Source of the DNA: a virus
Lineage: Duplodnaviria; Heunggongvirae; Uroviricota; Caudoviricetes
Direction: 5' to 3' (one strand)
Virus record (IMG/VR): IMGVR_UViG_2541047172_000030
DNA length: 20,554 nucleotides
Of this stretch, positions 15,857 to 17,995 are shown piece by piece. The notes under the pieces are model-generated. The model was not told where the DNA came from. It worked only from the letters and a program-made list of their open reading frames with translations, and ran no database searches. How positions within the stretch are numbered: position 1 is the first letter of the stretch; every line of letters starts with the position of its first letter. Both the position numbers and the translations under genes were made by a program.

Positions 15857-15955
15857 GACGCTCTCTTTGTTGGGCCTTTACTGAATTAACGCAAAATGGC
15901 GTTTATCGGTCTGTGGATATGATAATTCAGTTTATTCAGGAACAGGCTGATTATT

Positions 15956-17995
15956 ATGACGTCCAAATGGGTTCAACTATCATCAATGCCCGGAAACTTT
16001 ACTGTTAAAGTTTCCGGTGGTACAGCGGCATTTCTTGAGGCTCCCTTTCCTCCGGCCGAAACAAAAGGAGGAATGACATTTGCTGACTGTCTCATCAGTT
16101 TTAATACACGGGATTGCCTGTGGGTAAGGCCAGTATCCGGTGATCCGAGTGTGGAAATTACCGGAGCGGGTATTGGTGCGGTCATTCCGTTAAGTGCTGA
16201 TGTTGCCGGTACTGCTGAACCGTCAGACTGGGATAATGCTGAAACACATACCCGTCCGTCAGGAAATGAAACTGCTTCCAGCTCCCCTTCCTGGTATTAC
16301 GTGGTGGTTCTTGCTGGTCAGTCAAACGGTATGGCTTACGGTGAAGGTCTGCCACTGCCGGAGACATATGACCGCCCCGAACCGCGTATTATGCAGTTAG
16401 CCCGTCGCAGTACAGTCACGCCGGGAGGTAAAGCCTGTCAGTATAACGACATCATTCTGGCCGACCACTGTCTGCATGATGTGCAGGATATGAGTGGAAA
16501 AAATCACCCGAAAGCGGATGTGGCTAAAGGGCAATATGGCACCGTGGGTCAGGGGCTTCACATTGCCAAAAAACTGCTGCCGTTTATTCCGGCAGATGCG
16601 GGGATTCTGCTGGTTCCCTGCTGCCGTGGTGGTTCTGCATTCACGGCGGGTGCTGACGGCACGTACAGTGACAGCACGGGTGCTTCAGAGGACTCAGCCC
16701 GCTGGGGTGTGGATAAGCCGCTGTATAAGGACTTAATCAGCCGGACAAAAGCGGCACTGGCGAAGAACCCGAAAAACCGCCTGCTTGCTGTGGTGTGGAT
16801 GCAGGGCGAGTTTGATATTGATGCGAAGCCGACGGAGCATTCCGCGCTGTTTCTGGCGATGGTGGAAAAATTCCGCGCAGACCTGGCTGAACAGGCGGAA
16901 CAGTGTACCGGTGGCAGTGCTGCTGGCGTTCCGTGGATTTGTGGCGATACCACGTATTTCTGGAAACAGAAAAATGAACCGGCATACCAGGCAATCTATG
17001 GCGGCTACAAAAACAAAACAGATAAAAACATTCATTTCGTTCCATTAATGACAGATGAAAATGACGCGAATGTACCCACCAACAATCCGGCAGAAGACCC
17101 GGATATTGAATCCATTGGTTATTACGGCTCAACGTGGCGTAACAGTGCCGCCACCTGGACATCTGCGGACCGGGCCAGCCATTTCAGTTCATGGGCACGT
17201 CGTGGGATTATTTCCGACCGTCTGGCCACGGCAGTTCTGACTCATGCGGGGCGAACCACAGTAAAAGCCGATGTTCCATCTTCTGAAACTGAAGCACCAG
17301 TGCCGTCACCTTCAGAAACTGAAGCAGTAACCACAACACTGCTGTCTTATCGTGTCAGTGAGTCAGAAGGAAATCTGAAAGCCCAGGGCTGGGAGCCGGC
17401 TGGCGGTAAAGCTGAAATTATCAGTGATGCAGGAGGCACAGGTGGTAAGGCAATGAAACTGACCAAGGAAACAGGTAAATCATCTTGGTATCTGGATCAT
17501 GATGCCGGTACTGGTGCTGAACTGCTGAAAAATGGTGGTTTAATCAGTTGTCGTTTTAAAGTACCTGGCGACCTGGTGGCAAACCAGTATGTCATGGGGC
17601 TTTACTGGCCGGTTTCCTCTCTGCCGCAGGGTGTCACCCTGACAGGGGATGCAGGGAATAATCTGCTGGCATCGTTCTACATCCAGACAGACGCAAAAGA
17701 CCTGAATGTGATGTACCACAATGCAAAAGTGGCAACAAATAACCAGAAACTGGGAACCTTTGGTGCATTTGATAATGAATGGCATACGCTGGCCTTCCGT
17801 TTTGCAGGAAATAACAGCCTTCAGGTTATTCCGGTTATTGATGGTCAGGATGGTGCCGCGTTTACCCTGACGCAGTCACCAGTAGGAACTTTCCCGGTGG
17901 ACAAACTCCGCGTAACGGATATCACAAAAAATGCAACTTACCCGGTGCTGATTGACAGCATTGTGGTGGAAGTGAAAAAAGCGGTAACAGAATAA
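15956..17995 (+). CDS. Cargo gene: SGNH-hydrolase / sialate O-acetylesterase-like protein (DUF303/SASA-type, NanS-p-like) with C-terminal lectin-like domain
   Basis: 679-aa ORF with a GQSN-type nucleophile block (VVVLAGQSNGMAYGEG), a Gly block (LLVPCCRGGSAFTAG), WMQGEFD and a D-x-x-H block (SADRASHFSSW). Pro/Ser/Thr linker (PSSETEAPVPSPSETEA) precedes a ~220-aa beta-rich C-terminal domain. Weak ribosome-binding site. Sits between invertase and com, where Mu has no gene. Confidence 0.6.
   Translation: MTSKWVQLSSMPGNFTVKVSGGTAAFLEAPFPPAETKGGMTFADCLISFNTRDCLWVRPVSGDPSVEITGAGIGAVIPLSADVAGTAEPSDWDNAETHTRPSGNETASSSPSWYYVVVLAGQSNGMAYGEGLPLPETYDRPEPRIMQLARRSTVTPGGKACQYNDIILADHCLHDVQDMSGKNHPKADVAKGQYGTVGQGLHIAKKLLPFIPADAGILLVPCCRGGSAFTAGADGTYSDSTGASEDSARWGVDKPLYKDLISRTKAALAKNPKNRLLAVVWMQGEFDIDAKPTEHSALFLAMVEKFRADLAEQAEQCTGGSAAGVPWICGDTTYFWKQKNEPAYQAIYGGYKNKTDKNIHFVPLMTDENDANVPTNNPAEDPDIESIGYYGSTWRNSAATWTSADRASHFSSWARRGIISDRLATAVLTHAGRTTVKADVPSSETEAPVPSPSETEAVTTTLLSYRVSESEGNLKAQGWEPAGGKAEIISDAGGTGGKAMKLTKETGKSSWYLDHDAGTGAELLKNGGLISCRFKVPGDLVANQYVMGLYWPVSSLPQGVTLTGDAGNNLLASFYIQTDAKDLNVMYHNAKVATNNQKLGTFGAFDNEWHTLAFRFAGNNSLQVIPVIDGQDGAAFTLTQSPVGTFPVDKLRVTDITKNATYPVLIDSIVVEVKKAVTE

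Follow-up and report, generated by a model that had tools for sequence, protein, structure and literature searches.

A NanS-p-type sialate O-acetylesterase homologue with a lineage-specific N-terminal domain in Sp18-type Mu-like prophages

The closest described relatives of the gene studied here are the nanS-p genes of Stx lambdoid phages and the chromosomal nanS gene of E. coli. Chromosomal NanS (YjhS; structure 3PT5) is a single-domain, periplasmic esterase of the NanR regulon (PMC3658417); lambdoid NanS-p proteins combine a catalytic domain with a lectin-like C-terminal domain and an N-terminal DUF1737, have no signal peptide, and are encoded in the late operon between stx or Q and the lysis genes, with DUF1378 and then DUF826 genes following downstream. 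Lambdoid NanS-p reportedly acts on Neu5,9Ac2 and on glycans of mucin (PMC8065619), and a preprint describes the homologue phi24B gp84 as a capsid-decoration protein that is anchored by DUF1737 and released by processing (bioRxiv 10.64898/2026.04.10.717836), so that "free esterase" is no safe default for proteins of this kind. NanS-p has been discussed as an accessory of EHEC fitness and virulence and was studied in lambdoid prophages in the literature that we searched; this search found no paper that ties NanS-p to Mu-like phages, to WP_010917876 or to DUF6645, though an earlier mention of the Sp18 copy is possible. SGNH-type de-O-acetylases carrying a phage-specific N-terminal attachment module are also familiar from G7C gp63.1 and the acetylesterase spikes of Vi phages, which are demonstrated tail components with bacterial surface polysaccharide as their substrate. 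Unlike in these tailspikes, the catalytic domain described below is of the NanS type.

The DNA analysed here is a stretch of 20,554 nucleotides (the window) in which such a gene lies between a gin-like invertase and com-mom. Annotations of Baseplate J and YmfQ as well as Pfam matches of gin (Resolvase/HTH_7), Com (Zn_ribbon_Com) and Mom identify the prophage as Mu-like, in line with an earlier interpretation made without database searches (the sequence-only reading). The gin, com and mom genes of the Mu/Muvirus right end are homologous to those of the window at about 71% nucleotide identity, with values of ~71% each for gin and mom against Mu. Only 94 bp separate gin (end 35673) from com (start 35768) in Mu, whereas 3,366 bp with four ORFs lie here between the gin stop and the com ATG (taken at 19223, the RefSeq start), which agrees with the roughly 3.3 kb of extra DNA noticed earlier; in a Yersinia Muvirus, com-mom are found directly 3' of hin. 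The features of the locus are as follows:

15296-15856, + strand: gin-like serine DNA invertase, left neighbour of the extra DNA (Pfam Resolvase, 1.4e-51; HTH_7, 1.7e-14)
15857-15955, + strand: spacer of 99 nt from the gin stop to the esterase ATG (sequence read)
15956-17995, + strand: esterase ORF of 679 aa, a homologue of NanS-p-type sialate O-acetylesterases (RefSeq WP_010917876.1, "DUF6645 domain-containing protein")
15956-16195, + strand: N-domain, residues 1-80 with a conserved core at about 3-69, in place of DUF1737
16196-16291, + strand: linker, residues 81-112, with a high content of Ser/Thr/Pro/Ala and ...ASSSPSW at its end (alignment)
16292-17245, + strand: SGNH/SASA catalytic domain, residues 113-430 (3PT5 match, Pfam SASA)
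17330-17977, + strand: C-terminal lectin-like jelly-roll domain, residues 459-674, Pfam DUF6645 (6YP6, PF20350)
16280-18380, + strand: exchangeable cassette of catalytic domain, lectin domain, spacer and DUF1378 (sliding nucleotide identity against the Mu-like locus L006, per-domain identities)
18142-18324, + strand: DUF1378 small membrane protein (PF07125, E 1.2e-38; 53% identity to ArgO145 gp76)
18360-18605, + strand: DUF826 protein (PF05696, E 2.8e-15; 47% identity to ArgO145 gp75 over 51 aa)
18644-19108, - strand: zinc-ribbon-like hypothetical ORF of 154 aa in the extra DNA (phrog_26524, E 2.5e-52)
19223-20114, + strand: com-mom operon, right neighbour (Pfam Zn_ribbon_Com and Mom, PF25680)

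The 679-aa ORF is real and far beyond chance, because many E. coli genomes share the locus at 100% identity, strong homologues exist, and dN/dS values of about 0.1-0.2 in every domain indicate purifying selection. The gene had been placed at 15857-17995, of which the ORF itself stands but the first 99 nt are intergenic, since the invertase stop codon ends at 15856. A weak AGG occurs in this spacer, 9 nt ahead of the esterase ATG, and a terminator scan found no terminator-like site on the + strand of the spacer. An alternative start at M40, after AAGGAGGA, was rejected because only about 1 nt lies between AAGGAGGA and the ATG. Sigma-70-like promoter sites are at or below chance in number (5 found, 7.7 expected), the Mu C-box TTAT-N6-ATAA is absent from the window, and an Rfam scan of the window gave no matches. 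The order of DUF1378 and DUF826 behind the gene is that of lambdoid nanS-p; its position in the gin/com-mom interval differs from the late-operon location there. The 154-aa zinc-ribbon-like ORF further downstream is frameshifted by annotation in several genomes, and a GATC-rich stretch lies just upstream of com-mom at about 19150-19180.

Within the protein, the catalytic domain is the part most easily placed. The NanS/YjhS esterase of known structure, 3PT5, aligns with residues 104-428 (E 1.9e-118), and residues 116-312 match the Pfam family SASA/CE6 (PF03629) with 46.0 bits against a cut-off of 24.8, which bears out the family assignment of the sequence-only reading. Its GQSN motif was likewise correctly recognised as the nucleophile block: It occupies residues 121-124, aligned to AGQSN of 3PT5, with the Ser123 codon at 16322-16324. 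QGE follows at residues 283-285 (16802-16810) within W-M-Q-G-E-F-D, as in NanS. The D-x-x-H block that had also been claimed was not found anywhere in the 679 residues by motif search; instead, His409 (codon 17180-17182) stands in D-R-A-S-H, i.e., D-x-x-x-H, and aligns with the His of "SSHFS" in NanS. According to PMC9487903, E. coli NanS itself has no Block V Asp, and the missing D-x-x-H is therefore no argument against NanS-type membership; chromosomal NanS shares the GQSN, QGE and SHFS motifs as well as the missing Asp with the protein studied here, which differs from it by additional N- and C-terminal domains, the lack of an export signal and its prophage location. By these alignments, the catalytic domain adopts the SGNH/SASA fold and belongs to the NanS subtype, with Ser123 as predicted nucleophile, His409 as predicted base and no Block V Asp. 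Gln122 and the QGE of residues 283-285 would form the network typical of the SASA oxyanion hole, an architecture in which a Gln next to the Ser nucleophile takes part in an inverted oxyanion hole (PMC9487903).

A separate C-terminal domain of carbohydrate-binding type had been proposed as well, and this proposal holds: Residues 459-674 align with 6YP6, the structure of the NanS-p C-terminal domain (E 1e-111), and match DUF6645 (PF20350; E 2.4e-69), so that a lectin-like jelly roll as solved for NanS-p of phage phi24B is predicted. Over residues ~110-673, the protein is 74% identical to NanS-p of Stx lambdoid phages, which confirms its suspected kinship with lambdoid prophage sialate esterases; for the catalytic domain, identity reaches 81% to lambdoid NanS-p of ArgO145 versus 67-69% to other Mu-like alleles. 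The catalytic and lectin-like domains are thus shared with lambdoid NanS-p, and both proteins have no signal peptide.

The N-terminal part is different. Lambdoid NanS-p has DUF1737, but the Mu-like protein has an unrelated N-domain of ~80 aa and a longer linker, in which the second "SSP" linker motif of lambdoid NanS-p reads PSP. A profile check for DUF1737 (PF08410) had been suggested; a lambdoid control scored E 3.5e-18, while three full-length Mu-like alleles and a Salmonella fragment gave no match, and residues 1-110 of the window protein matched neither DUF1737 nor any other Pfam family at E<=1. Conserved positions of the N-domain among relatives down to 29% identity are W5, G13, V17, V19, G21-G22, F26, P30, P33, I47, L55-W56, V60, G62 and P64, and its dN/dS is about 0.10. 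AlphaFold2 predictions were unusable for the full protein without an alignment (pLDDT 33.8) and, for the N-domain with an alignment of 4 sequences (pLDDT 39.5), suggested only beta strands. We conclude that the N-domain is a separate beta-rich domain unrelated to DUF1737.

In all Mu-like contexts inspected (Escherichia, Shigella and Salmonella), the N-domain was found fused only to these esterases. A word-index search for relatives returned only E. coli, Shigella and Salmonella fragments, and an exhaustive HMMER search of 1.84 billion representatives returned 5 matches, 4 of them members or fragments of this family; P0005, the remaining match, is a repeat protein of 1,445 aa and was judged to be low-complexity noise. 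A GTDB genome scan gave no matches, a PDB profile search gave only noise at E>1, and neither tblastn nor HMM searches found a paralogue in the window, the Mu right-end segment (31000-36717) or related loci. A distant link emerged to phrog_4772, a family of 77-aa orphan proteins of Kuttervirus (Ackermannviridae): Its profile matches residues 3-68 of the window N-domain at positions 11-77 of 79 (E 0.004-0.006) and other, divergent N-domains more strongly (P0008, E 2.5e-5; L125, E 1.8e-4), and hhalign of N-domain residues 1-69 against the 77-aa Kuttervirus protein gave a probability of 91.7% and E 1e-7 over near the whole length. Because the homology is remote, we consider this kinship probable rather than certain. 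The Kuttervirus protein (e.g., GG32 gp200, YP_009283785.1) is a stand-alone protein, ~19% identical to the N-domain, and its gene lies in a tRNA/hypothetical region beside a gene for a stand-alone Sf6-type tail-needle-knob domain protein.

Comparison of Mu-like prophages with each other points to a recombination junction at the 3' end of the linker. Between the window and the Mu-like locus L006, identity is 100% for gin, 97.5% for the N-domain, 67% for the catalytic domain, 41% for the C-terminal domain, 56% for DUF1378 and 98.8% each for DUF826 and mom. Sliding nucleotide identity breaks at about 16280, where it falls from 95% to 76%, and again at about 18380; nucleotide homology with lambdoid nanS-p begins at 16294. 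The cassette is thus replaced as a block between prophages that are otherwise 96-100% identical. The esterase body of L006 resembles another group of lambdoid alleles from residue ~109 onward, so that two near-identical Mu-like backbones carry bodies of 67%/41% identity, each nearest to a lambdoid allele group of its own. By these patterns, the cassette of catalytic domain, lectin domain and DUF1378 has repeatedly recombined with lambdoid nanS-p alleles, and the N-domain of the Mu-like lineage has stayed constant through such exchanges of the enzyme body. The idea that the module moves between phage types is therefore upheld with regard to exchange, but the mobile unit is a sub-genic cassette, joined in frame at the boundary of N-domain and catalytic domain, rather than the complete gene.

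The gene is nearly universal in Sp18-type prophages rather than a one-off insert. Sp18 is a Mu-like prophage predicted to be intact and cannot be induced with mitomycin (PMC2669165); insertion sites of Sp18-type prophages differ between strains, and the tail-fibre segment in the prophage type of the window is invertible, with inverted repeats of 185 nt. The N-domain is present in 205 of 5,426 complete E. coli genomes, inside a DUF6645-annotated gene in every row listed, and com-mom of the window's type was found in 226 genomes. Of 34 IMG/VR loci, 27 have at least one further Mu-like gene besides gin (upstream gp47/gp48, downstream mom or both), and a non-Mu context was seen in none; there are also relatives in Salmonella and in other Mu-like prophages. 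The window esterase shares only ~77% nucleotide identity with lambdoid alleles, which argues for an old resident and against a recently acquired moron.

Taken together, we read the ORF as a three-part sialate 9-O-acetylesterase of the NanS-p type and an accessory gene that the Sp18-type Mu-like lineage has long carried, with a probability of roughly 85%. The enzyme would 9-O-deacetylate sialic acids, both free and bound to mucin (Neu5,9Ac2 to Neu5Ac), a substrate specificity that we derive from characterised relatives of 67-81% identity. De-acetylated sialic acids would then be open to use through the nan pathway and to attack by sialidases, and the lectin-like domain may direct the enzyme to glycans. 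Because no hydrophobic signal-peptide-like stretch was found at the esterase N-terminus, the substrate would be reached only at cell lysis after phage induction, by the enzyme either as free protein or on particles.

Whether the esterase benefits the lysogen or the phage particle depends on how the N-domain is interpreted. We see an even chance that a free enzyme serves the lysogen only, with spontaneous lysis of a subpopulation feeding de-acetylated sialic acid to sister cells and the N-domain acting in solubility, oligomerisation or additional glycan binding without any link to the particle. Growth benefits on Neu5,9Ac2 are known to depend on prophage esterases (PMC8065619, PMC3658417), the gene lies outside recognisable late structural operons in most members, and the lack of a predicted + strand terminator between gin and the gene would permit expression in lysogens. 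The types of N-domain also show no co-variation with the identities of major capsid protein, gp47 and gp48, which favours a free enzyme and speaks against docking to a virion. However, a cytoplasmic enzyme without export signal is useless to the intact lysogen unless lysis occurs, and the strict tracking of phage type by the N-terminal module is left without explanation.

This tracking is what a virion-displayed enzyme might account for. The N-domain would then be a docking or assembly module specific to the phage type, a counterpart of DUF1737 in Stx phages; by this analogy, which we consider tentative and somewhat unlikely, it may place the esterase on capsid hexon, baseplate or fibre of the Mu-type particle. 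The displayed enzyme, a similarly doubtful proposition, could serve the phage in retention in or penetration of mucus or in receptor unmasking, instead of or besides feeding the lysogen. It is exactly DUF1737, the reported capsid anchor of the lambdoid homologue, that is swapped for a lineage-invariant N-domain while the enzyme body changes. A constant N-terminus with a swapped body is the pattern of N-terminal anchors of tail fibres and tailspikes, and the constancy of the N-domain resembles it. The purifying selection on this domain is also consistent with display, as is the position of the gene directly after tail-fibre and fibre-assembly genes in gin-less relatives; in most members, however, the invertible segment and gin separate the gene from the tail operon. 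SSP at residues 109-111, the junction of N-domain and catalytic domain, resembles the putative processing motif of the preprint but is missing from other N-domain alleles. Moreover, the N-domain, unlike DUF1737, was never seen fused to other cargo, and the stand-alone Kuttervirus relative does not lie in an obvious structural module.

An action as host-surface de-O-acetylase on O-acetylated LPS O-antigen or capsule, aiding adsorption or release, is improbable. This possibility has been raised for NanS-p (PMC8065619), and it finds some resonance in a weak match of the SASA region to phrog_25867, "tail protein" (E 4e-5), and in 30% identity of residues 109-310 to a minor tail protein of an Arthrobacter phage. 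Yet the catalytic domain matches chromosomal NanS, for which 9-O-acetyl Neu5Ac is the best substrate, at E 2e-118 and is 81% identical to a lambdoid NanS-p with reported sialate activity, and no beta-helix or known tail-adaptor domain was found by Pfam or PHROG. A passively carried, non-functional relic is highly improbable, given a full-length gene that is perfectly conserved in many genomes with all catalytic residues intact and the low dN/dS in every domain, and despite a frameshifted N-domain region in one relative (L126), fragments among the database entries and one IS1-truncated Mu remnant.

For the three-part esterase as we read it, these results mean that an enzyme body otherwise studied in lambdoid prophages belongs to the regular equipment of a family of transposable, Mu-like prophages, and that recombination exchanges it between lambdoid and Mu-like phages exactly where two domains meet. 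This prophage family is common in the STEC genomes listed (O157:H7, O26, O103 and O111), and these strains therefore carry an uncounted extra esterase copy. The pairing of N-terminal module and phage type, together with the capsid anchoring by DUF1737 described in the 2026 preprint, leads to a testable prediction of particle display, and the orphan family phrog_4772 gains its first context. It is conceivable, if rather unlikely, that the N-domain and the stand-alone phrog_4772 relatives represent an unrecognised virion-docking module. If so, Stx podoviruses (through DUF1737) and Mu-like myoviruses (through the N-domain) would each be fitted with the same exchangeable "warhead" of sialate esterase and lectin, and NanS-p proteins would primarily be particle-borne tools for phage life in mucus instead of metabolic morons for the lysogen.

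In the window, which contains the right half of a Mu-like prophage, the esterase gene lies between the invertase and com-mom in the following arrangement:

15296-15856, upstream neighbour of the esterase: gin-like serine invertase (Pfam Resolvase and HTH_7)
15956-17995, plus strand: esterase ORF, 679 aa
18142-18324, downstream of the esterase: DUF1378
18360-18605, downstream of DUF1378: DUF826
18644-19108, minus strand: 154-aa zinc-ribbon-like ORF with CxxC...CxxC motifs (phrog_26524)
19223 (ATG, RefSeq start): com, 66 aa (Pfam Com)
19377-20114: mom

The invertase shares ~71% DNA identity with Mu gin, and 3,366 bp separate its stop from the start of com compared with 94 bp in Mu, which bears out the sequence-only reading of about 3.3 kb of extra DNA; com-mom directly follow the invertase, without insert, in a Yersinia Muvirus and likewise in an E. 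coli prophage of the classical Mu type. Of the span given there for the esterase (15857-17995), the end is indeed the stop of the ORF, while the start is the first base past the invertase stop and the ORF begins at 15956. A mechanical ORF call gives com a TTG start at 19178 and 81 aa (19178-19423); the 66-aa form is favoured because the Pfam Com match starts at residue 16 of the longer one. Several genomes have the 154-aa ORF annotated as frameshifted, and lineages that share only 50-80% identity in the adjoining esterase region are 95-98% identical in the DNA of this ORF. Two GC hairpins in the spacer between esterase and DUF1378 (17996-18141; ~18003-18031 and ~18060-18073, an A-run before each) look like intrinsic terminators for the minus strand and not for the plus strand.

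Elsewhere in the window, inverted repeats of 185 nt (77% complementary; 13845-14029 and 15051-15235) surround a ~1 kb segment beside the invertase. It carries a tail-fibre assembly gene (14269-14901, minus strand) as well as an alternative fibre C-terminus (14870-15085) and is an invertible host-range segment of the Mu G kind. A G+C spike (0.68 against ~0.56-0.58 in the flanks; 7501-8000) lies within a 691-aa ORF (6137-8212), probably the tape-measure gene as judged by size and position. A Mu-type right end, ~74% identical to that of a Yersinia Muvirus, finishes near 20243, and an ORF from 20279 resembles the C-terminus of a TonB-dependent outer-membrane receptor and is apparently a disrupted host gene.

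The esterase itself is ordinary, and RefSeq already calls it "DUF6645 domain-containing protein" or "sialate O-acetylesterase". Pfam confirmed the predicted SASA family (46 bits, cut-off 24.8) and matched DUF6645 (E 2e-69), while comparison with solved structures aligned residues 104-428 with E. coli NanS/YjhS (3PT5, E 1.9e-118) and residues 459-674 with the C-terminal domain of phi24B NanS-p (6YP6, E 1e-111), in agreement with the separate carbohydrate-binding-like domain proposed earlier. A search of phage genomes gave 348 matching records, nearly all Stx-converting or related lambdoid phages, with lambdoid matches at ~74-78% protein identity across residues ~65/102-673. Judged by alignment to the SASA family as described (PMC9487903), the catalytic signature is intact: the anticipated GQSN motif occupies residues 121-124 with nucleophile Ser123 and the adjoining Gln, Block III QGE is preserved at residues 283-285, and His409 aligns with the NanS histidine. 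The D-x-x-H block named in the sequence-only reading is absent from the esterase, where D-R-A-S-H is the sole candidate; since NanS itself lacks the Block V aspartate (PMC9487903), this corrects a detail, not the class.

What sets the protein apart is its N-terminus. Lambdoid NanS-p begins with DUF1737, and the ArgO145 control matches that model at 3.5e-18; residues 1-110 of our esterase have no Pfam match at E<=1, so that DUF1737, one of the families the sequence-only reading had suggested searching for, is missing. It is also absent from two further full-length Mu-like alleles and a Salmonella fragment, the three other proteins tested. Homology to the lambdoid protein starts only around residue 110, with DNA homology (~77%) from position 16294. 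Even so, the first ~80 residues form a genuine domain (N-domain): W5, G13, V17, V19, G21-G22, F26, P30, P33, I47, L55-W56, V60, G62 and P64 are fixed in relatives down to 29% identity, dN/dS among close alleles is ~0.10, and distant alleles show pN 0.26 versus a saturated pS of 0.79. Structure prediction reached a pLDDT of 39.5, at which low confidence beta strands alone are suggested. When 1.84 billion representative proteins were searched exhaustively, only the domain's own family and fragments came back, apart from a 1,445-aa repeat protein that we set aside as low-complexity noise, and all matches extending beyond the domain continue into a SASA catalytic domain.

Comparison with L006, a second E. 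coli Mu-like prophage, delimits an exchanged segment. Identity is 100% for gin, 97.5% for the N-domain and 94% for the linker, but 67% for the catalytic domain, 41% for the C-terminal domain and 56% for DUF1378, before DUF826 (98.8%), com (98.5%) and mom (98.8%) match again. At the nucleotide level, identity falls from 95-100% to 50-78% at ~16280 and is regained at ~18380; the left break falls at the N-domain/catalytic boundary, where homology to lambdoid nanS-p also sets in. The catalytic domain of the window is 81% identical to a lambdoid allele versus 67-69% to other Mu-like alleles, the L006 enzyme from residue ~109 on has its match in another lambdoid group (phages JLK-2012, 434 and others), and there are further combinations, such as identical N-domains followed by C-terminal domains that share only 77-86% identity. 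These breaks and allele affinities show that lambdoid and Mu-like prophages have repeatedly exchanged a cassette of catalytic domain, lectin domain and DUF1378, which in every instance was fused in frame to a resident N-domain. A truncated, IS1-bounded copy in E. coli 600029 (L123), comprising only esterase, DUF1378, DUF826, com and mom, lies amid lambdoid tail genes; such a Mu-derived block inside a lambdoid prophage could recombine with nanS-p there.

Many STEC genomes, O157:H7, O26 and O103 among them, share the 4-kb esterase locus at 100% identity, and the prophage is of the same type as Sp18 of strain Sakai, which is predicted to be intact (PMC2669165, PMC7430833). Of 5,426 complete E. 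coli genomes, 205 carry N-domain DNA (>=95% identity in every case), with as many as four copies in one genome; among all matches listed, it lies within a DUF6645-annotated gene. With com-mom of this type in 226 genomes, almost every prophage of the type has the esterase. Insertion sites differ between strains, some copies lying inside Stx prophages, which fits a transposable phage; in other strains, the prophage sits in ureC, near T6SS tagO, near rutF or within Stx prophages. Scored as far as each contig reaches, 27 of the 34 N-domain-encoding IMG/VR loci have a Mu-like gene besides gin (gp47/gp48 upstream and/or mom downstream), and none of the 34 has a non-Mu context. A Salmonella relative with an N-domain 29% identical likewise places the esterase after the invertase, and two gin-less Mu-like relatives have it directly behind tail-fibre and fibre-assembly genes. 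The Salmonella Mu-like prophage L041 carries two small ORFs between invertase and esterase (9426-9910; 58 aa, phrog_6330; 87 aa, phrog_20491, weakly similar to transcription regulators) that are absent in the E. coli version. The IMG/VR Mu-like contig L125 encodes a 784-aa variant (7983-10337) with a ~100-aa C-terminal extension past the lectin domain, directly after a tail fibre and a DUF4376 assembly protein; gin, DUF1378, DUF826, com and mom are all absent, and a DNA cytosine methyltransferase-like ORF lies 3' of the esterase.

The sequence-only reading had set a free esterase against a tail- or virion-associated one. In phi24B, gp84 (NanS-p) was reported as a capsid-decoration protein whose DUF1737 forms hexamers on hexon centres and whose enzyme part is cleaved off after release (2026 preprint, bioRxiv 10.64898/2026.04.10.717836). 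By analogy, the N-domain might dock the esterase onto the Mu-like particle, and a Mu-like enzyme lacking exactly DUF1737, with a lineage-specific domain instead, shows the pattern expected of such a module. However, N-domain type does not co-vary with gp47, gp48 or the major capsid protein, which is 97-98% identical where N-domains are 60-62% identical and 91% where they are identical, and no fusion of the N-domain to other cargo was found. A probable stand-alone relative is phrog_4772, the sole or top PHROG match of three divergent N-domains (E 0.004, 2.5e-5 and 1.8e-4) in alignments spanning nearly the whole 79-position profile. One family member from Kuttervirus phages, a hypothetical protein of 77 aa (GG32 gp200, E 9e-41 to phrog_4772), aligned with the N-domain at 91.7% probability over 69 columns in profile-profile comparison. 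In Salmonella phage SJ2, 19 nt separate the phrog_4772 gene from the gene downstream, which encodes a stand-alone tail-needle-knob domain protein of the Sf6 type; the pair lies amid tRNAs and hypothetical genes, outside any obvious structural module. Particle docking therefore seems rather unlikely to us, and a released enzyme, its mode of attachment left unspecified, is our default reading. The SJ2 pair (L132, 6947-7708, minus strand; 77 aa, then a 169-aa knob protein, PF16532, E 1e-28) is distant from structural genes.

The active site of the esterase is NanS-type and intact, its lectin-like domain has a solved fold, and it is under purifying selection. By analogy with characterised relatives, it would hydrolyse 9-O-acetyl groups on free and mucin-bound sialic acids, with the C-terminal domain binding glycans and thereby aiding hydrolysis. 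Direct reading of the N-terminus (MTSKWVQLSSMPGNF...) found no hydrophobic signal-peptide-like stretch, in contrast to chromosomal NanS, which is periplasmic (PMC3658417); because an export signal is absent, substrate would be reached only after phage-induced lysis. No plus-strand terminator-like site is predicted between gin and the esterase, promoter-like sites in the window are not above chance, and the window has no Mu C-box.

Compared with NanS-p, the esterase is probably alike in its mode of working and has two of three domains in common, but it departs from two features that define NanS-p in the literature: it has no DUF1737 domain and does not lie in the late region of a lambdoid prophage. 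We found no paper on a Mu-like NanS-p copy in the part of the literature covered, and an earlier mention may exist. New are the domain replacement, the precise cassette junction and the phrog_4772 link, which together make the question of virion display testable.
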